Shown: positions 1-37,430 of the stretch, in pieces
Layout: the number at the start of each line of letters is the position of its first letter
Numbering within the stretch: the stretch's first letter is position 1
Origin: a virus
Taxonomy: Duplodnaviria > Heunggongvirae > Uroviricota > Caudoviricetes
Strand: one strand, 5' to 3'
IMG/VR virus record: IMGVR_UViG_2585427768_000010
Length of the DNA: 37,430 nucleotides
Notes under the pieces: generated by a model
Told to the model about the DNA's origin: nothing
The model's database searches: none
The model's input: the letters and a program-made list of their open reading frames with translations, nothing else
Position numbers and translations under genes: made by a program

Positions 1-1002
1 TTACCCTCTATTGTCAAAAGGGTTCAATTCAACAGCAGCCTCTAAATGACCTGGAGCAAAATGCGCATAACGCATAGTCATTTTTATATCGCTATGCCCC
101 AGTATTTTTTGCAACACAAGAATATTTCCGCCCCGCATCATAAAATGACTGGCAAACGTGTGACGTAGCACATGAGTTAATTGCCCATCAGGAAGCTCGA
201 TCTTCGCTCTCTTAATTGCAGCGTCAAAAGCCTCATAACATGGTGAAAATAGCGCTCCTCGTTTTTTAGGAAGCATAGCCTGCAATTGAGGTGAAATCGG
301 TACAGTGCGGTTCTTCTTTCCTTTAGTTTTAACAAATGTGATTCGACCGGGCAGTACTTGAGATTGCTTTAATCCTTCTGCTTCACTCCACCGAGCACCC
401 GTCGCAAGCCCAATACGGACAACAACCCCCAAATCTTTATTCCGTGACTCATCACACGCAATCAGAAGGCGTTCAATCTCATCTACATACAGAAACGCCA
501 GTTCCTTTTCTTCCTCACGAAACTTGCGAATACCAGTCAGGGGGTTTTCACCAGACCACTCCCCAAGGCGCTTCAGTTCGGCAAAAACAGCATGTAGATA
601 TGACTGCTCGCGATTAACGGTTGCTTCACTAAGTTTTTTCTTCCCCTTGGGATTCCATTCTCCTGATAGCCTTCTTTCCCGATAAGTAGCAAACATATTT
701 TTGTCAAACTGAGAAGCAAATGGATCTCCCAGCCTGGAACAAATCGCCTCAAGTTTGACTTTGCGCTCTGCACCAGAGGACAAGGTTTTACCGTACATCT
801 CAAACCAACGAGCAATCAACTCAGAAAGACGAGGACCAGAACCATCTTGAAACTCGTCTCCAACTCTACTATTCATTAAACGGCGCTCATAAGAGAGCGC
901 CTCACTTTTTGTCGCAAACTGTTTACGAATGCGTTTTCCCGATGCCCCGTAGGGATAACATTCGCAAAGCCATTTACCTGATGGAATCTTACGAACCGAC
1001 AT
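1..1002 (-). CDS. int: Tyrosine integrase, P2 Int-like (333 aa)
   Basis: Translation shares P2 Int blocks GKRIRKQF, TGARWSEA, VTFVKTKGKKNRTVPIS, HVLRHTFASHFMMRGG, LQKILGH, RYAHFAP; stop codon sits at window positions 1-3. Confidence 0.9.
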   Translation of the reverse strand: MSVRKIPSGKWLCECYPYGASGKRIRKQFATKSEALSYERRLMNSRVGDEFQDGSGPRLSELIARWFEMYGKTLSSGAERKVKLEAICSRLGDPFASQFDKNMFATYRERRLSGEWNPKGKKKLSEATVNREQSYLHAVFAELKRLGEWSGENPLTGIRKFREEEKELAFLYVDEIERLLIACDESRNKDLGVVVRIGLATGARWSEAEGLKQSQVLPGRITFVKTKGKKNRTVPISPQLQAMLPKKRGALFSPCYEAFDAAIKRAKIELPDGQLTHVLRHTFASHFMMRGGNILVLQKILGHSDIKMTMRYAHFAPGHLEAAVELNPFDNRG

Positions 1003-1384: not shown

Positions 1385-2035
1385 TTACAAATTAAAAAAT
1401 GCCCTAGAAATGACACCACCTACCAAAACCCCTACGCAGATAAAGAATATTATTTCTTTTGGATAAAGTCGGATTAATTCTGAAGCACGAAGTCGGACTT
1501 CTGGTAAGGTCGAACTCTCTGTGTGGCTTGATGCCGATTGTTGCTCTAACCACGACAATGCAGACTGTAACTGAGAACGAGTAAGATCGTTTAAACGTCC
1601 TGTACCGAAATTGATATGGCAATACCGCAGAAGTTTTTGTCGAAGTCCACAGTCTTCACTGTTACGTAGTAATAAACTTACAAGAGCCTTACAGGCATCA
1701 TGATCTTTACATCGCTCAAGCATTGCATGCAGAAAACTCTCCGCTGTTTTATATTGATTTACTGTCATATCATCAATACCAGTTACACCAATCTCCGCAT
1801 GTACTTTTTGCCAAATAATAAACGCTTCAGTATTGCTAGCTTCTGCAATAGCAGCAACCAAGCTATTTAGCTCCTTACGCTGAGCCTTAAGCAAAGGGCG
1901 ATCGTCATCATCATTATTCGAAGGGATTGCGATATTGACGGTCTGAGAACCATCATATCGCTCTATCTGAATATTCTTTTCGTGAAAATCACGCCCAGCA
2001 ACGCGATTGTTTGAACCGTTTGAGTTGACGGCCAT
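1385..2035 (-). CDS. Hypothetical protein with C-terminal hydrophobic anchor (216 aa)
   Basis: ORF with GGGAGGTG Shine-Dalgarno; C-terminal hydrophobic segment IIFFICVGVLVGGVISRAFF; N-terminal NNRVAGRDFHE motif also found at the C-terminus of the upstream repressor. Confidence 0.55.
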   Translation of the reverse strand: MAVNSNGSNNRVAGRDFHEKNIQIERYDGSQTVNIAIPSNNDDDDRPLLKAQRKELNSLVAAIAEASNTEAFIIWQKVHAEIGVTGIDDMTVNQYKTAESFLHAMLERCKDHDACKALVSLLLRNSEDCGLRQKLLRYCHINFGTGRLNDLTRSQLQSALSWLEQQSASSHTESSTLPEVRLRASELIRLYPKEIIFFICVGVLVGGVISRAFFNL

Positions 2036-2050
2036 GTCACCTCCCTACTA

Positions 2051-2455
2051 TCACCTACCCTTAGTTTCGTTATAGTCACGACCAGCGATACGGTTATTAC
2101 CACCAGAAATATTTAACTCACGTCCTGATGGCTGAGTTTCCTTTTCACTGATCGCACCTTTTAAAGCCCCAATCACCGCATTTTTCACATCTAACGAAGC
2201 TGCTCGAAAGCGAGTAATCAACTCCTGCTCATCATCGTTATAAGTTTCAGGTGAGTGAATTCCCAACACAACATACTGAACATCAAGGCCAAAACGAGAC
2301 AGCGCTGCCAAATACGCAGCATCAGGAAAGCTATCTCCTTTCTCATATCTAAGCTGAGTTAGCTTTTTGACTCCACCAATGTCGCTCATGGCAACTTGAC
2401 TAAGTCCCAATCTTTCCCTTTCCTCACGCAACCGCTGACCAATATCATTTTTCAT
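2051..2455 (-). CDS. XRE-family helix-turn-helix immunity repressor (C/CI analogue, 134 aa)
   Basis: N-terminal HTH (QRLREERERLGLSQVAMSDIGGVKKLTQLRYEKG); positioned divergently from the early operon and upstream of int as in P2 C. Confidence 0.7.
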   Translation of the reverse strand: MKNDIGQRLREERERLGLSQVAMSDIGGVKKLTQLRYEKGDSFPDAAYLAALSRFGLDVQYVVLGIHSPETYNDDEQELITRFRAASLDVKNAVIGALKGAISEKETQPSGRELNISGGNNRIAGRDYNETKGR

Positions 2456-2464
2456 ACAAAAACC

Positions 2465-2494
2465 TTGACAGGTATCTTTTTTGATACCAAAATG
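2465..2494 (+). promoter_or_regulatory. Candidate early promoter with embedded operator palindrome
   Basis: TTGACA at 2465-2470 followed directly by perfect inverted repeat GGTATC-N6-GATACC (2471-2488) in the repressor/early-operon divergent intergenic region. Confidence 0.35.
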
Positions 2495-2530
2495 ATTTCA
2501 CGAGCTATTAGATGATCACAATATACCACT

Positions 2531-2737
2531 ATGAAACAAGTTCTTCACGATACCAGATCACGCATTCCGCGTAACACCGCCACAGGTCCAAGACTGGCAC
2601 TTCGGCTGTCCCTCGAGGAGCGAGCCGTCATTGATGAAATGGCAGCTAAAGAACAACGCTCATCCTCTAACATGGCGCGCATGATCTTCCTTCGCGGCCT
2701 AGAGCTAACCCAGAAAGAACAAAACAAATCTTCCTGA
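2531..2737 (+). CDS. Small putative ribbon-helix-helix-like regulator (68 aa), first gene of early operon
   Basis: ORF; segment RLSLEERAVIDEMAAKEQRSSSNMARMIFLRGLE resembles RHH DNA-binding proteins; function inferred only. Confidence 0.4.
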   Translation: MKQVLHDTRSRIPRNTATGPRLALRLSLEERAVIDEMAAKEQRSSSNMARMIFLRGLELTQKEQNKSS

Positions 2738-2753
2738 TCAGGAGGCTAGTGGG

Positions 2754-2957
2754 ATGTCAGGTATAACCATCAATATCAATGTGAATGCCCCCTATGTATC
2801 CCTGCAGAAATATGCAGAGATAACAGGTATCCCTCTTAATACATGCAAAAAGATGTTGGCTGACGGTCGAATTATTATCCGACCCAAACGCGCCAAAATG
2901 GAAAAGCCTGAAGTAAACCTTGTGGCGATGTTAAAAGACGCTTTGGCTAACAGCTAA
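2754..2957 (+). CDS. Cox/Apl/AlpA-like small HTH protein (67 aa), putative excision/transcription regulator
   Basis: GGAGG Shine-Dalgarno; HTH-like YAEITGIPLNTCKKMLADGRI similar in pattern to P2 Cox (FAKLIGKSTGAVRRMIDKGKLPVI). Confidence 0.45.
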   Translation: MSGITININVNAPYVSLQKYAEITGIPLNTCKKMLADGRIIIRPKRAKMEKPEVNLVAMLKDALANS

Positions 2958-2978
2958 AACAATGAACAGAGCACCATC

Positions 2979-3329
2979 ATGAAAAAAAACGCTAATAATC
3001 CATACTCCAAATTTCGTAATGGCGTAGAACGCCATGTACACCACGTCGCTACCAGTGCATCACGTAGTAACAGTCGCTATAACCTGAACGAGACGCACGC
3101 AACACCGGATGGCCACGCTGTAAAACAAATCGGCGAGCATGCCTGGCTGATTGAGAAAGCTGGAATCGTGGTCCACAAATGCCCACGCAATCCGTTTACC
3201 GGAAACCGCATTTTTGCATTGAACTGCGGCGACAATCACTTCGGGCAGGATTTCACATTATACGAAGCACTTCGCACGGTTGATCGTCTGCTTCGCGGGC
3301 AAAGTTTTATTAAACAGGCTGATTTATAA
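2979..3329 (+). CDS. Hypothetical early protein (116 aa)
   Basis: ORF in early operon, co-oriented and tightly spaced. Confidence 0.5.
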   Translation: MKKNANNPYSKFRNGVERHVHHVATSASRSNSRYNLNETHATPDGHAVKQIGEHAWLIEKAGIVVHKCPRNPFTGNRIFALNCGDNHFGQDFTLYEALRTVDRLLRGQSFIKQADL

Positions 3330-3339
3330 CAGGTGCTTT

Positions 3340-3618
3340 ATGACCAAAGAGCATGCACAAGGTGTATTTATCCGTTTTATTGATTTTCGCGGTGAACTGT
3401 TATTACGCGCATCAGCCATTGACGGAGTTGTTCCATCCGAAAAAAACGCAGCTACTTACGTTTATCTGAACGGTACGCGCCTGACTGTGGAGCTTCCGTA
3501 CCAGACCGTACGAGAAATCATTAGCGAAGCTGAAAAGGCACGTCAGGTTAATGGCGATGAACCCTATATCGAAATTATTTGTATGGATTCAGAAGCTGAA
3601 ATTCAGAAAGCAGATTAA
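3340..3618 (+). CDS. Hypothetical early protein (92 aa from ATG 3340)
   Basis: ORF; the internal ATG at 3340 avoids overlap with the upstream gene. Confidence 0.45.
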   Translation: MTKEHAQGVFIRFIDFRGELLLRASAIDGVVPSEKNAATYVYLNGTRLTVELPYQTVREIISEAEKARQVNGDEPYIEIICMDSEAEIQKAD

Positions 3619-3629
3619 AGGGCGTTGTG

Positions 3630-3872
3630 ATGGGCAAAGAATATAAAACTCTCATTAACAAAGCACTTGAGCGTTTTTATTTTCGCTTAAGTGCATCAGG
3701 CGCTCATGCTGAACGTGCGGCCCGTGACTCATTGACCAGAGCAATCCGAAGTCTGTATGACGTGGCTTTTTACGCTGATGATCTGGATGCACTTAACGAA
3801 CTTTCCGAGCTGATCTATGCCGCAGAATGCGGGGAACATATTGAACCGTATAAGCTGGGAAATATCGCATGA
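3630..3872 (+). CDS. Hypothetical early protein (80 aa)
   Basis: ORF with ATG at 3630. Confidence 0.45.
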   Translation: MGKEYKTLINKALERFYFRLSASGAHAERAARDSLTRAIRSLYDVAFYADDLDALNELSELIYAAECGEHIEPYKLGNIA

Positions 3873-3982
3873 GTATATTTATCTCATGGCTTGTTCTGAT
3901 TATTTCGGTGGTCTGCGCCATTGGGATTATGCGAATTATTAATTCAGTAAAAAAGATTGAACGCTTTTTCACTGAAGAATAA
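3869..3982 (+). CDS. Small hydrophobic peptide (37 aa, MSIFISWLVLIISVVCAIGIMRIINSVKKIERFFTEE)
   Basis: Hand-translated; ATGA start/stop overlap with upstream gene; one predicted transmembrane helix; below the 60-aa cut-off of the supplied ORF track. Confidence 0.3.
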   Translation: MSIFISWLVLIISVVCAIGIMRIINSVKKIERFFTEE

Positions 3983-4068
3983 CCGCGCAAATAAGACCCC
4001 AGGTTAAATAAGAAAATGTGAAAACAATCCGCATTCGCGGAGGTATTCGCACACGCCAAGGAGGCGTA

Positions 4069-4272
4069 ATGGCAATTAAGCATTTTCCCGTCGTTCGTTT
4101 CACCTCCAAAGGACGTGAATACGAAGTTGACGAACGCCTGATTACCACAATCGACAAACACCGTTCAGAAAAGGATGCACATCACATCTATCTCACTGAC
4201 GGCACTTACTTTTGCGCCACCAACGTGGTGCAGGTAAATCTTATCAGACAGGTACAGGAGTCACGCAGATGA
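4069..4272 (+). CDS. Hypothetical early protein (67 aa from ATG 4069)
   Basis: AAGGAGG Shine-Dalgarno at 4055-4061 precedes ATG 4069. Confidence 0.45.
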   Translation: MAIKHFPVVRFTSKGREYEVDERLITTIDKHRSEKDAHHIYLTDGTYFCATNVVQVNLIRQVQESRR

Positions 4273-4514
4273 CCATTCTGGACTACATCGCTGCCAATCC
4301 GGGTTGTAGCGGTGGAGAAATCGCCGCAGCACTGAATACACCAACCACAACCATTAATGCGGAGCTACGCCGTCTCTGGCGCAGCGGTTCAGTCATAAGA
4401 AAAGAGCGCAAAACAGGCGGTCGCTTTTCTTATCAGGTAAACCCGATGCCGTTTGGGTGTAGCAACCCACTAACCCAGATGTTCAACCAGCTACTGAGGG
4501 AAATCAGAGCATGA
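4269..4514 (+). CDS. Putative winged-helix DNA-binding protein (81 aa)
   Basis: ATGA overlap with upstream gene; sequence MTILDYIAANPGCSGGEIAAALNTPTTTINAELRRLWRSGSV has HTH character. Confidence 0.45.
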   Translation: MTILDYIAANPGCSGGEIAAALNTPTTTINAELRRLWRSGSVIRKERKTGGRFSYQVNPMPFGCSNPLTQMFNQLLREIRA

Positions 4515-4655
4515 GCACCTCCAACTGCCGGAAACCACGTCGGGCTTCAGCAGCTCATCCGGCAGCAAAACAAACTCCATTAATTCCTGTTCCGGGTCTT
4601 TCCTGCACCTTGTGGCGGGAGGCCTTCGCACATCTGTAACAAGAGGATTGCCGCA

Positions 4656-5021
4656 ATGATTCTCGCCAACGACTTTCTTGAATACCTGCTCAACACAGAG
4701 CGTGATCTTGCCGTTCGCGTGCGTGAACGTTATGACATGTACCTGAAATCCCAGCTTGTACCGCAGCTCGCTGACGGAAAGATTGTTATTGATGGTCGCT
4801 ACATGATTGACAGCCACGAGGGAAATTACAGGCTTTACCGCATTGAAGGTGGCACCCCGTCCGTTATTGGCATTTACCAGCGCCCATCCTCTGCAATCGT
4901 CAATGTGATTGCCGACAGCATCCGCATCACACATCGCCATGCCGACACAGAAGACACCGTGCTGGAAATTCAGCGGCTGGCTACAGTCTGCCGCGACACC
5001 CTGAATGGCATGACGAAGTAA
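4656..5021 (+). CDS. Hypothetical early protein (121 aa) directly upstream of A
   Basis: AAGAGGA Shine-Dalgarno; occupies the position of P2 B-region genes. Confidence 0.5.
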   Translation: MILANDFLEYLLNTERDLAVRVRERYDMYLKSQLVPQLADGKIVIDGRYMIDSHEGNYRLYRIEGGTPSVIGIYQRPSSAIVNVIADSIRITHRHADTEDTVLEIQRLATVCRDTLNGMTK

Positions 5022-34784: not shown

Positions 34785-34826
34785 GCAACTTAGAATAGCA
34801 GCAGCACCACGTTAAGGGAGGTCGCT

Positions 34827-35087
34827 ATGTTCCGTTGTCCGCTTTGTGGCGCATCTGCCCGTATCCGCACCAGTCGTCCGGAAAATGATTCAAACACCGT
34901 GCGGCAAAAGTATTACCAGTGTAACAACCTGGAATGCGGCGTATGCTTCTCAACACTGGAAGCTTTCCATAAATTCACATCAAAACACACCTCCGGCGTT
35001 CACTCTTCAGAAGGTATCCCGTGGCATGAGCTGCCAGCTTCACACAGGGGAAACAATCAGATGAGTTTGCCTTTACCTCAGAATTAA
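34827..35087 (+). CDS. ogr: Late transcription activator Ogr (zinc-finger, 86 aa)
   Basis: MFRCPLCG...YYQCNNLEC four-cysteine pattern as in P2 Ogr (MFHCPLCQ...YHQCQNVNC); AGGGAGG Shine-Dalgarno. Confidence 0.85.
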   Translation: MFRCPLCGASARIRTSRPENDSNTVRQKYYQCNNLECGVCFSTLEAFHKFTSKHTSGVHSSEGIPWHELPASHRGNNQMSLPLPQN

Positions 35088-35278
35088 CAGGCAGAATTGC
35101 CGGAGTAACAAAAAAGCGATAGATTACGCGCGGGTGCCTTTCGGCTGATGGTCGGAGGGAATACCCGAAGGCCAGATGTGGAAAGGCCCCGGAAAACATT
35201 TCTGTTTAACCGAGGCCCTAACATATCTACCTTAAGCAAGTGATAGGTTAGCGCCTCTCCAACAAAGGAGCAAGCGCT

Positions 35279-35419
35279 ATGTCGCAAAAATCGCTTACGG
35301 CCATCACATTCTGCGTGACGGTAATCCTCATCATCTGGATGCTACACGGTTCGCTGTGTGAAATACGGATGAGCTTCTGGGGAGCGGAGTTTGCGGCGTT
35401 CTTACAGTGTAAGCAGTAA
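35279..35419 (+). CDS. Hok/Gef-family type I toxin (46 aa: MSQKSLTAITFCVTVILIIWMLHGSLCEIRMSFWGAEFAAFLQCKQ)
   Basis: Hand-translated; single transmembrane helix followed by SLCEIR and AAFL.C motifs shared with Hok/HokA-type proteins; AAAGGAG Shine-Dalgarno. Confidence 0.6.
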   Translation: MSQKSLTAITFCVTVILIIWMLHGSLCEIRMSFWGAEFAAFLQCKQ

Positions 35420-35506
35420 GGAAACCGCGACGGGGGAGCAATCCCCCGTCAATCGGTTGCTAAGGTTGGCTGAAGTGGCACCCTATCTCACAGACATGAA
35501 CAACAA

Positions 35507-35539
35507 ACCCGCAGCGTAAGAACTGCGGGTTTTCTTTTT
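35507..35539 (+). terminator. Rho-independent terminator downstream of hok-like gene
   Basis: ACCCGCAG-cgtaagaa-CTGCGGGT followed by TTTCTTTTT. Confidence 0.55.
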
Positions 35540-35607
35540 GGAACTATCACTAGCTAGTGTACCGTTAACGGCACATAATGCTCGCACAACAAACCTGTTA
35601 AAAGAGA

Positions 35608-35889
35608 TTACTCAGCATTCTCCTGCTTCCATTGCCGGATCATTTCATCGGTAACATCACCCTCATAACATACCACGTCATACCCTCCATTACGGCTATA
35701 TGCACTGCGTCCACCACATCTACTACCATTCCTTGCATGATTATAAGGACACGCACAATTGCCTGGATAAGATTCAATGGATTCTTTAATTATTTCTTTT
35801 TTGATCTGAGCATCAGACTTTCCTGTTGCTGCATATCCGCTAAAAGATACTAAACAAAGGCAGATTGCCATTAATAAACCACATCGCAT
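35608..35889 (-). CDS. Small secreted cysteine-rich hypothetical protein (about 93 aa from internal Met)
   Basis: Signal-peptide-like MRCGLLMAICLCLVSFSGYAA; the longer 131-aa track ORF has no RBS; start uncertain. Confidence 0.4.
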   Translation of the reverse strand: MRCGLLMAICLCLVSFSGYAATGKSDAQIKKEIIKESIESYPGNCACPYNHARNGSRCGGRSAYSRNGGYDVVCYEGDVTDEMIRQWKQENAE

Positions 35890-36214
35890 ACCGATACACT
35901 CTATTACTAACCAATCATAGCCCACATCATAAAATCGAGATGAGGAGTACAATACCTTTAACAAGAAGGTGTCATAACGATAATATGTCGTGCAATTCAT
36001 CAAAAAAAAGATCTATATCAAAGAGATAGAACTCTTATCAGTGCTTCAGACATCGGCATTCGAGGCAGCAGAAAAACAGTAAATCTGACGAATTTGCCTT
36101 TTCCCAAGATGTTGTCAGATTAAAAAGATAGATTAGCGCAGGTACCTGTTGGTGGATTGCAGGAGGAAAAATGAAGTCGAGTGGAAAAATCCCAGAAAAA
36201 TTTTTGTTTAACAG

Positions 36215-36260
36215 AGGTCCTGGTTCACTATGCGAAATACGGAGGAGCTGCAGAAGAATT
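36215..36260 (+). pseudogene. Degenerate hok-like 3' fragment
   Basis: TATGCGAAATACGGAGGAGCT matches the SLCEIR-coding segment of the hok-like gene (about 25 of 29 nt) in the same frame; no transmembrane N-terminus. Confidence 0.35.
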
Positions 36261-36427
36261 CTGCTTCATCCTTAGAGTTTAAACAGCACGTGCACTACCA
36301 TTGTTTCTGCATATCGCCACACCATCGCCACTCACCCGCCATTGCACAAAATACAAAAAAAAAAAACCCCCCCGAAGGTGGTTTCACGACACTGCTTATT
36401 GCTTTGATTTTATTCTTATCTTTCCCA

Positions 36428-36514
36428 TGGTACCCGGAGCGGGACTTGAACCCGCACAGCGCGAACGCCGAGGGATTTTAAATCCCTTGTGTCTACCGAT
36501 TCCACCATCCGGGC
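36428..36514 (-). tRNA. leuZ: tRNA-Leu (anticodon TAA), 87 nt
   Basis: Reverse complement matches remembered E. coli leuZ sequence (GCCCGGATGGTGGAATCGGTAGACACAAGGGATTTAAAATCCC...CCA). Confidence 0.9.
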
Positions 36515-36526
36515 TCGGGAAGAAAG

Positions 36527-36600
36527 TGGAGGCGCGTTCCGGAGTCGAACCGGACTAGACGGATTTGCAATCCGCTACATAACCGCTTTGTTAACGCGCC
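36527..36600 (-). tRNA. cysT: tRNA-Cys (anticodon GCA), 74 nt
   Basis: Reverse complement matches remembered E. coli cysT (GGCGCGTTAACAAAGCGGTTATGTAGCGGATTGCAAATCCG...). Confidence 0.9.
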
Positions 36601-36654
36601 AAATTCTTCAGGCCTTTCAGCCAGACATCCGCTTGAGGCCGATGTCTTTTAAAC

Positions 36655-36730
<76 letters not shown>

Positions 36731-36881
36731 ATTCATCAAGCAATCAGTTAATCACTTGATTTTATTATCGTCTGGCAATCAGTGCCGCCGTTCGATGCGT
36801 TGCATTCTACTTACCTGGCGCGATGAGTCAACGATATTTTTCACCACTTTTGATCGTTTGCTGAAAATTGCGCCGAAACGA

Positions 36882-37430
36882 TCACTGATCAAGCAAATCT
36901 GCACGCGCAGCGCTCAAATATTGCAACATTGACCACAGAGTCAGTACCGCAGCCACAAAGAAAAGTGCAATACCGGCGTACTCAACCCAAATGTTCGGAC
37001 GCCACAGCAGCCAGGCCAACGCCACCATCTGGGCAGTGGTTTTCACTTTCCCAATCCAGGAGACAGCCACGCTACTGCGTTTACCCAACTCCGCCATCCA
37101 TTCGCGTAGCGCAGAAATAATAATTTCACGGGCGATCATCGTTGCCGCCGGTAGGGTCACCCACCAGCTGTGATAATGCTCGGTTACCAGCACCATGGCG
37201 ATAGCCACGAGAACTTTATCTGCTACAGGGTCAAGGAAAGCACCAAACCGGGTACTCTGGTTCCAGCGGCGTGCCAGAAAACCATCGAACCAGTCAGTCA
37301 CCGCCGCGACGCAGAAAATGAGCGCGGCGGCAAACGGCGACCAGGTGACAGGCAGATAAAAGACCAATACAAAGAATGGGATAAGGATGACACGGAACAG
37401 TGTAAGCAACGTAGGGATATTAAATTGCAT
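36882..37430 (-). CDS. pgsA: CDP-diacylglycerol--glycerol-3-phosphate 3-phosphatidyltransferase (182 aa, complete)
   Basis: Translation [27 protein letters not shown]...[11 protein letters not shown] matches E. coli PgsA; upstream of glyW-cysT-leuZ as in E. coli. Confidence 0.9.

Follow-up and report, generated by a model that had tools for sequence, protein, structure and literature searches.

Among the closest described relatives of the locus reported here are hok/sok/mok of plasmid R1 and hokW-sokW of the Stx2 phage Sp5/933W. In the R1 system, translation of mok up to the Shine-Dalgarno (SD) sequence of hok is mandatory for Hok synthesis (PMC9841398). The hokW-sokW pair was experimentally shown to be a type I toxin-antitoxin (TA) system, which aids lysis and phage release after induction (PMC8621323). 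In addition, a survey of Hok proteins reported that hok is enriched in prophages (10.1101/2025.08.07.668861). We analyzed a window of 37,430 nucleotides (the whole stretch of DNA, at its full length), which contains a hok-like gene, referred to as copy 1, and a second copy about 900 bp further on. Our analysis indicates that the segment 35097-35540 is very probably a hok/sok-type type I TA cassette, carried as cargo by a P2-like (P88-like) prophage in leuZ, and that copy 2 is a pseudogene, probably carried in the att-proximal arm of this element.

The DNA of the window is from Escherichia coli: pgsA and the tRNA genes glyW, cysT and leuZ lie at 36428-37430, and strains FORC_069, NCCP15648, 55989 and others share 99.4-99.7% identity with the region. 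The element is framed by the following features:

1-1002, minus strand: integrase of the P2-like prophage, which runs from here to ogr
34827-35087, plus strand: ogr, late-gene activator of the P2-like prophage (Pfam Ogr_Delta, 52.4 bits; ogr/Delta-like in the RefSeq annotation), directly upstream of the hok cassette
36361-36482, no strand: attR, a 122-bp repeat made of the 3' 55 nt of leuZ and 67 nt downstream
36428-36514: tRNA-Leu gene (leuZ)

The 122-bp att repeat ends in the anticodon loop of leuZ. When the attL region of FORC_069 was compared with the window by blastn, a second copy of the repeat was found at attL, adjoining yecA (98.4% identity over 122 bp). In K-12-type strains yecA is located 195 bp from leuZ with nothing between them, and K-12 is contiguous across the att site. 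The presence of the repeat at both ends, together with the empty site in K-12, implies that an island, reaching from int to position 36360, has integrated in leuZ. The preliminary description of this DNA had placed the hok gene next to the prophage end; in fact the island continues to the attachment repeat at 36361-36482, and by these comparisons both hok copies are inside it and absent from K-12. The whole arrangement of 34800-37430 was detected in 325 of 5426 complete E. coli genomes, and the integrase of the leuZ element in 525-599 genomes.

Several other observations were made at the attachment site. O157:H7 was rejected as a phage-free comparison, as IS30 took the place of the 3' end of D, ogr and hok in that genome. 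Phage record 520873, examined for the circular attP of the leuZ-type integrase, proved to be an excerpt of a prophage, with yecA included and its end within hok, and was uninformative on this point. An 8-mer, AACTATCA, occurs both after the phage terminator (35542) and after the att repeat of attL, and was considered as a recombination scar. This reading was dropped, since a similar CTCAC motif is present at that place in phages with other integrases, which points to coincidence or a shared phage motif.

The toxin gene of copy 1 is a short frame downstream of ogr:

35279-35419, plus strand: hok coding sequence, 46 aa, with SD GGAG at 35267-35270; RefSeq WP_000078920.1, 'Hok/Gef family protein'

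Translation of the ORF gave the 46-aa protein MSQKSLTAITFCVTVILIIWMLHGSLCEIRMSFWGAEFAAFLQCKQ. Its residues 7-24 are hydrophobic; the stretch TAITFCVTVILIIWML is followed by GSLCEIR...AAFLQCKQ. Members of the Hok family have about 50 residues, with a single hydrophobic helix in the N-terminal part and conserved Cys in a polar C-terminal part; this layout is present in the 46-aa protein and kept in its homologues. The protein matched Pfam HOK_GEF (PF01848) with 30.1 bits (cutoff 22, E=3.7e-7; residues 7-44 on profile positions 5-42) and phrog_251, 'MokW-like host killing', with E=2.5e-23. The top NCBIfam match was HokA (NF007290; E=6e-9), at 35.8 bits against an equivalog cutoff of 89. As judged from these matches, 35279-35419 encodes a type I toxin gene product of the Hok/Gef family, and assignment of the 46-aa ORF to this family on the basis of one hydrophobic helix and SLCEIR / AAFLQC motifs, as initially proposed, was borne out by the Pfam score above cutoff and the PHROG match. 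The surroundings also agreed with the initial description (about 200 bp after ogr, a good SD and a downstream terminator): the ORF starts 191 bp past the ogr stop at 35087, AAGGAG is located 8 nt before its ATG, and a hairpin at 35505-35532 followed by a T-run lies downstream.

Conservation of this frame was assessed in an alignment of eleven homologous loci (74%-99% identity), taken from P2-like prophages (three sites), phage P88, one Stx2a phage and five plasmids or chromids. The 46-codon frame was intact in nine of ten homologous loci apart from the following defects: the IncI1 version stops one codon early, and the E. albertii version is degenerate. Values of pN/pS for the four most divergent loci were 0.35-0.52, and the frame was kept down to 74% nucleotide identity. 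With regard to toxicity, a V15A variant of the window Hok (72_1621) is among the Hok peptides that were tested by overexpression, and is absent from the list of non-toxic peptides (10.1101/2025.08.07.668861, Table S2). The peptide 72_1589, which corresponds to the Stx2a-phage variant, is likewise among the tested peptides of Table S2, and the preprint names only three peptides as non-toxic, neither 72_1621 nor 72_1589 being one of them (10.1101/2025.08.07.668861).

The same alignment of eleven loci showed conservation of the leader and the 3' elements as well as of the coding frame. The following features of the hok transcript were delineated:

35097-35125, plus strand: inferred hok promoter read from the sequence, TTGCCG (35097-35102), 17-nt spacer, TAGATT (35120-35125)
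35132-35540, plus strand: predicted full-length hok mRNA of about 409 nt, with its 5' end placed by alignment to Rfam RF01794
35132-35146, plus strand: tac-like 5' element GGGUGCCUUUCGGCU, which is invariant in homologues and, in the fold of the full-length RNA, pairs with the fbi-like element
35428-35451, plus strand: stable 3' hairpin after the stop codon (GACGGGGGAG..CCCCCGUC), with four compensatory pairs in alignment columns 355-378
35465-35483, plus strand: fbi-like 3' element (...GGCACCC), complementary to the mRNA 5' end
35505-35540, plus strand: intrinsic terminator, hairpin at 35505-35532 and then a T-run, common to P2-like phages; end of the conserved phage module

Both hexamers of the hok promoter were kept across 10 homologous loci, down to 74% identity. 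A generic sigma-70 promoter scan flagged neither this promoter nor that of the antisense RNA described below, each of which matches 6-8 of 12 consensus positions; the hok promoter was missed because only 8 of 12 positions match. Thus, both promoter calls rest on conservation and positional homology. The interval from ogr to hok contained no predicted terminator. The sok model of Rfam (RF01794) aligned at full model length to 35132-35289 on the plus (hok-sense) strand with E=8.6e-9, its score of 47.9 bits being below the Rfam gathering score of 59.

The predicted mRNA (35132-35540) folds with a minimum free energy (MFE) of -174.6 kcal/mol (z=-8.1). In this MFE fold the first 15 nt are paired with 35465-35483, closing the full-length molecule from 5' to 3' end by tac/fbi-type pairing, the hallmark of hok mRNAs (R1 model, PMC9841398). 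When the last 84 nt were removed, this pairing was lost and the 5' end refolded as a local hairpin. Both the tac-like and fbi-like elements are invariant, and therefore no covariation is measurable for their pairing. Elsewhere, the consensus fold of 11 homologues contained compensatory changes in 15 of its 98 pairs, and those in the hairpin at 35428-35451 included GC to AU and AU to CG replacements. In the predicted folds the SD of hok is buried in a local hairpin, with CUCC paired to GGAG. Homology to the Stx2a-phage, pAR0430 and raiA-prophage loci ends at 35483 and that to other plasmid loci within about 20 nt downstream, such that homology outside P2-like phages stops at or within about 20 nt of GGCACCC (35477-35483). 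P88 and the prophages at serS, raiA and leuZ share the terminator, and their sequences diverge right after it.

Two features were assigned to the opposite strand:

35180-35238, minus strand: predicted Sok-like antisense RNA of about 58 nt, complementary to the leader, with inferred ends
35245-35273, minus strand: inferred Sok promoter, -35 TTGCTC (35273-35268), 17-nt spacer, -10 TAACCT (35250-35245)

The predicted Sok would start near 35238 and end near 35180, with a single-stranded 5' part of about 20 nt, a hairpin (GGCCUCGG...CCGGGGCC) and then UUUCC. Its predicted fold has an energy of -30.3 kcal/mol (z=-4.1). In 8 homologues the hairpin is kept, and the 5' tail varies from subtype to subtype. 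The -10 hexamer TAACCT was invariant in all eleven loci. A -35 hexamer, TTGCTC or TTGACT, was found 17-18 nt upstream of it in 9 of 11 loci, overlapping the SD of hok; the exceptions were TTGCCT in the Stx2a phage and TTTCTC in the degenerate E. albertii locus. The position of this promoter presumably corresponds to that of the R1 Sok promoter. In the search for a sok-like antisense promoter, proposed at the outset, a putative Sok could thus be delineated where R1 Sok has its homologous position. A Sok-like RNA on the minus strand is suggested by promoter-like hexamers and a hairpin, both of them conserved, and by positional homology. Overall, copy 1 has the appearance of a complete hok-type RNA locus, with conserved promoter, fold-back, sequestered SD, 3' hairpin and predicted Sok.

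These elements suggest how the cassette may operate. The plus strand would give rise to a highly structured mRNA of about 410 nt, whose 5' end is paired in silico with the 3' element and whose hok SD is held in a local hairpin. By analogy with R1, the closed mRNA would be translationally inert until trimmed at the 3' end. The minus strand would produce the Sok-like RNA, about 58 nt long. This RNA would be complementary to the part of the leader immediately before the SD, and may pair with the processed mRNA and lead to its decay. According to the literature on this family, the 46-aa product would be a single-pass inner-membrane toxin. The phage may benefit in one or more ways, including prophage retention through post-segregational killing, exclusion of other phages and help with lysis on induction, the last of which has a precedent in hokW-sokW of Stx2 phage Sp5.

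The preliminary description also expected a mok frame overlapping hok. No frame reading through the SD and start of hok was found in the window allele: each of the three frames has a stop codon within 35232-35251, and from 35252 to the start of hok there is no ATG, GTG or TTG. Frames of 59-78 codons that run through the hok start are present in two sister alleles at leuZ (L008 and L009); in the window, P88 and the serS prophage a 1-nt indel (TTAAGC vs TTAGC or TTGAC) closes this mok-like frame. A through-frame into hok is also lacking in the versions of the Stx2a phage, pAR0430 and pB39. An ORF from the conserved ATG at 35175, considered for coupling to hok by termination just before the SD hairpin, was rejected, as neither its frame nor its length is conserved among homologues. 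The mok-less allele therefore appears, by comparison of these alleles, to be a genuine departure from the R1 paradigm. Given that mok translation is mandatory in R1 and mok is absent here, poor expression of the native locus is possible.

In its strong form, this consideration would make copy 1 silent or crippled, that is, an intact toxin ORF that is not translated from its native mRNA for want of mok and a passenger with no present function. The closed frames and lack of a later start codon before hok are in line with such a state, as are the through-frames kept in the close alleles L008 and L009, from which the window differs by the 1-nt closing indel, the mandatory mok translation of R1 (PMC9841398) and the report that chromosomal hokA, hokB and hokC gave no post-segregational killing (introduction of 10.1101/2025.08.07.668861). 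However, the allele carried by the isolated phage P88, and by prophages at several sites, is the mok-less one. Loci that are likewise without a through-frame (Stx2a phage, pAR0430 and pB39) still show conservation of the hok frame, its SD, the RNA pairings and the Sok elements, and hok has its own strong SD at good spacing. We consider a silent copy 1 unlikely. A different proposal, which we also regard as doubtful, is that the 46-aa Hok cluster of P2-like phages works without mok coupling, with Sok acting by duplex-triggered decay or by occlusion near the self-sequestered SD. Under this proposal the cassette might in addition be activated by read-through late in the lytic cycle, serving lysis or exclusion of rivals and not classical addiction; such read-through may occur because hok is located directly behind ogr with no intervening terminator.

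Occurrence of the module outside leuZ is informative about its origin. The unit D-ogr-hok-terminator was detected at leuZ, serS and raiA in E. coli strains, as well as in phage records P88, Chuche, Shae_phiSM, PhiR44_2, 500465-2 and P884B11 with 95-98.5% identity, where homology ends at about 35540. Additional hok cassettes were found in Stx2a-converting phages (84% identity) and on plasmids (74-88%). Synteny with phage genes was thus independent of chromosomal site, as expected of accessory cargo of P2-like phages (Peduoviridae/Xuanwuvirus). Recurrence of the module in P2-like (Xuanwuvirus) phages and at other attachment sites suggests that it is phage cargo and not a chromosomal locus split by a prophage. 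Of the two origins considered in the preliminary description, phage-associated cargo is the one supported by ogr-hok-terminator in P88 and its relatives and in P2-like prophages at serS and raiA. The proposed comparison with prophage-free strains was likewise informative, as neither hok copy is present in K-12-type strains.

Between copy 1 and leuZ the island contains three further features:

35608-35889, minus strand: orf93, a small Cys-rich protein with a signal peptide, located between the hok copies; RefSeq WP_001303543.1, hypothetical protein
36043-36121, plus strand: relic of the 3' end of a second ogr, aligned with 35037-35084
36127-36295, plus strand: hok pseudogene (copy 2), which keeps the -10, a leader of about 95 nt and the 3' 74 nt of the coding sequence

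Comparison of the two hok copies by blastn yielded collinear matches with E=7e-10 (109 bp, in the leader) and E=1.6e-5 (the SLCEIR segment). In a gapped alignment, 35118-35219 corresponded to 36127-36221 (-10 and leader) and 35348-35425 to 36222-36295 (3' part of the coding sequence), with about 78% identity overall. Copy 2 is missing the 128 bp that correspond to 35220-35347 of copy 1, which comprise the 5' end of Sok and its promoter, the SD, the ATG and codons 1-23, i.e., the membrane helix. In addition, a 26-bp gap takes out the -35 of its own promoter. Upstream, the same alignment matched 35055-35084 of the ogr 3' end to 36082-36121, and by-hand translation of the ogr relic gave ...NLTNLPFPK..., which resembles the Ogr C-terminus ...NQMSLPLPQN. 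The second copy noted earlier is therefore real and indeed lacks the membrane helix, but it is not a mere 3' fragment, as it also keeps the ogr 3' end, the -10 and the leader.

The alignments also bear on the idea that an old hok locus was disrupted by insertion, in which a single ancestral locus of the chromosome would have been split by the prophage or intervening DNA and each copy would be one half of it. Their spacing of about 900 bp on the same strand, with the foreign-looking DNA of orf93 between them, fits this idea. Nevertheless, copy 1 is complete from promoter to fbi, and copy 2 duplicates, rather than complements, its leader and 3' coding part, has an ogr 3' end of its own and carries the internal 128-bp deletion. 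The prophage-free site of K-12 is without any hok sequence, and copy 1 moves with ogr to other attachment sites. These findings refute disruption of an old locus, and we give a split ancestral locus practically no credence.

A 34-aa ORF is present by chance in copy 2 (36171-36275), with AGGAGG located 4 nt before its ATG at 36171. This ORF was rejected as a gene: the ATG is changed to ATA in O157:H7, the frame is shifted in L009 and there is no ORF in L008. The relic was 86-95% identical between island variants, compared with 95-97% for orf93 and more than 99% for host flanks; where the relic was 86% identical, neighboring orf93 was 97% identical. By this measure, the relic appears to be the fastest-decaying piece of a mobile segment. 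It was found in 643 of 5426 genomes, is next to leuZ in all inspected examples and is unannotated in all genomes listed. The lack of a conserved ORF and the faster evolution relative to neighbors suggest that copy 2 is a pseudogene. It could instead have gained a new function, either as a small protein encoded by the 34-aa ORF, given its well-placed AGGAGG, or as an RNA decoy for Sok, given that about 40 nt homologous to the Sok target are kept. Loss of the -35 through the 26-bp gap, non-conservation of the ORF in O157:H7, L009 and L008 and the highest divergence in the arm make such a function very improbable. We conclude that, as far as sequence comparison can tell, 36043-36295 is a non-functional remnant of another ogr-hok right-end module.

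Whether orf93 and the relic belong to the present phage was assessed separately. The order ogr-hok-orf93-relic-leuZ was the same in all variants examined, and orf93 matched phrog_27544 with E=7e-58. We favor the view that orf93 and the relic form the att-proximal arm of a leuZ-integrating phage lineage, based on the absence of a third att repeat, the constant architecture and the PHROG match of orf93. The relic would then be a product of old recombination between two P2-like right ends. Alternatively, the segment 35542-36360 might be outside the present phage genome, having been left by an earlier P2-like prophage at leuZ alongside which the present phage integrated. No record of the phage collection covers 35542-36360, all phage matches stopping at about 35540; the relic persists in L007, L008 and L010, whose prophage has decayed or given way to IS elements, and the number of genomes with the relic (643) exceeds that with the integrase (525-599). 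On the other hand, tandem site-specific integration would leave the 122-bp repeat a third time, between terminator and relic, and no such copy is present there. Moreover, the segment differs by 3-14% between strains and flanking host genes by less than 1%, so that it evolves like a mobile element with the same architecture in every variant, and the PHROG matched by orf93 derives from genomes of phages and prophages. That the segment was left by an earlier prophage is thus possible, though less likely than its being an arm of the phage lineage.

The hok gene itself is already known: it is annotated as Hok/Gef in RefSeq, its peptide cluster was surveyed and toxicity-tested, and phage-borne hok/sok loci are established. 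Our findings are thus of little importance beyond correct annotation. Three outcomes are modestly useful. Putative RNA parts (promoters, tac/fbi and Sok) were delineated for the 46-aa Hok cluster; the common phage allele was found to have no mok frame, although the R1 model requires mok to be translated; and the unannotated segment 36043-36295 was recognized as an ogr-hok pseudogene, not to be counted as another toxin locus.

Compared with hok/sok/mok of R1 (architecture as in PMC9841398), the window locus has in common a small single-pass membrane toxin of the HOK_GEF family, an mRNA of about 400 nt closed by tac/fbi pairing, a stable 3' hairpin and a short antisense RNA, predicted in the window, with its putative promoter at the equivalent position, directly before the start of hok. 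It differs in that Hok has 46 aa and not 52, no mok frame is present, and the locus is phage-borne rather than plasmid-borne; furthermore, the Sok -35 overlaps the hok SD owing to a shorter spacer, and the Rfam model scores below the gathering threshold. The likeness to hokW-sokW of Sp5/933W consists in a phage-borne hok/sok locus and in the PHROG name of the window protein, 'MokW-like host killing'. However, HokW is a different paralogue of 51 aa with another leader sequence, found in a lambdoid phage, whereas the window type belongs to a 46-aa cluster that is represented in Stx2a phages by a separate, 84%-identical cassette apart from hokW. Among named subfamilies HokA of E. coli (NF007290) scored best, but with 35.8 bits against a cutoff of 89 the window protein is not HokA. 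In the 2026 Hok survey the closest entry is in identity cluster 72, where 72_1621 differs from the window Hok by V15A only; this survey covered coding sequences only, and Sok and mok of cluster 72, ogr-hok synteny and the relic are outside its scope (10.1101/2025.08.07.668861). Finally, Escherichia phage P88 (NC_026014, Xuanwuvirus) continues after the terminator with a different sequence, and hence a different attachment arm, without orf93 and the relic, but its gp52 is identical to the window Hok and its DNA is 98.5% identical over ogr-hok-terminator.

The stretch from hok to attP is a variable cargo slot in these P2-like phages, because in a relative integrated at raiA (strain 23CRST031, locus positions 3331-4904) a TM2-domain gene separates hok from the conserved phage terminator, and a com/DNA-methyltransferase pair lies 3′ of this terminator. 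In the window, the following gene is located between the hok cassette and the hok relic:

35608-35889, minus strand, orf93, encoding a 93-aa protein

The N-terminus of the orf93 protein resembles a signal peptide, and the protein contains the Cys-rich motif YPGNCACPYN...RNGSRCGGRSAYSR. No family was found for it in Pfam or NCBIfam; it matched phrog_27544 (E=7e-58), a PHROG without assigned function. Since orf93 is conserved at 95-97%, which is better than the surrounding DNA, this gene probably represents a genuine phage moron.

In E. coli O157:H7 (Z1813), an IS30 element occupies the place of the 3′ part of D, ogr and the intact hok cassette (positions 1491-3031 of that locus). The toxin locus has been lost in the O157:H7 lineage, as only orf93 and the hok relic of this region are retained in the same prophage after replacement by IS30.

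The island is bounded by an unusually long att repeat of 122 bp, identified by comparing window positions 36361-36482 with attL of strain FORC_069. This repeat reaches 67 nt beyond the 3′ end of leuZ, through the terminator of the tRNA operon. Its copies differ in a tract that reads A12C7 on the phage side versus A7CCACCC in the host copy, and with the A12C7 tract of the phage-side copy the reconstituted leuZ has an altered terminator stem. In addition, the 8-mer AACTATCA was present twice, once directly behind the phage terminator and once directly behind the int-side att repeat, in each case preceded by a T-run (window 35535-35549 versus the FORC_069 attL junction). Its occurrence at both places may reflect chance or a common arm motif.

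With regard to the hok leader, the Rfam family named 'sok' (RF01794) aligned to the hok-sense strand at 35132-35289, covering the leader as far as the hok AUG, and not to the strand that would encode Sok. A frame resembling mok, the leader frame overlapping hok in R1, was open in two sister alleles at leuZ (L008 and L009), where it is 59-78 codons long, beginning in the leader and continuing across the hok start, in the region homologous to window 35175-35280. A 1-nt indel closes this frame in the window allele. The mok frame is erratic inside a group of hok alleles sharing 92-99% identity.
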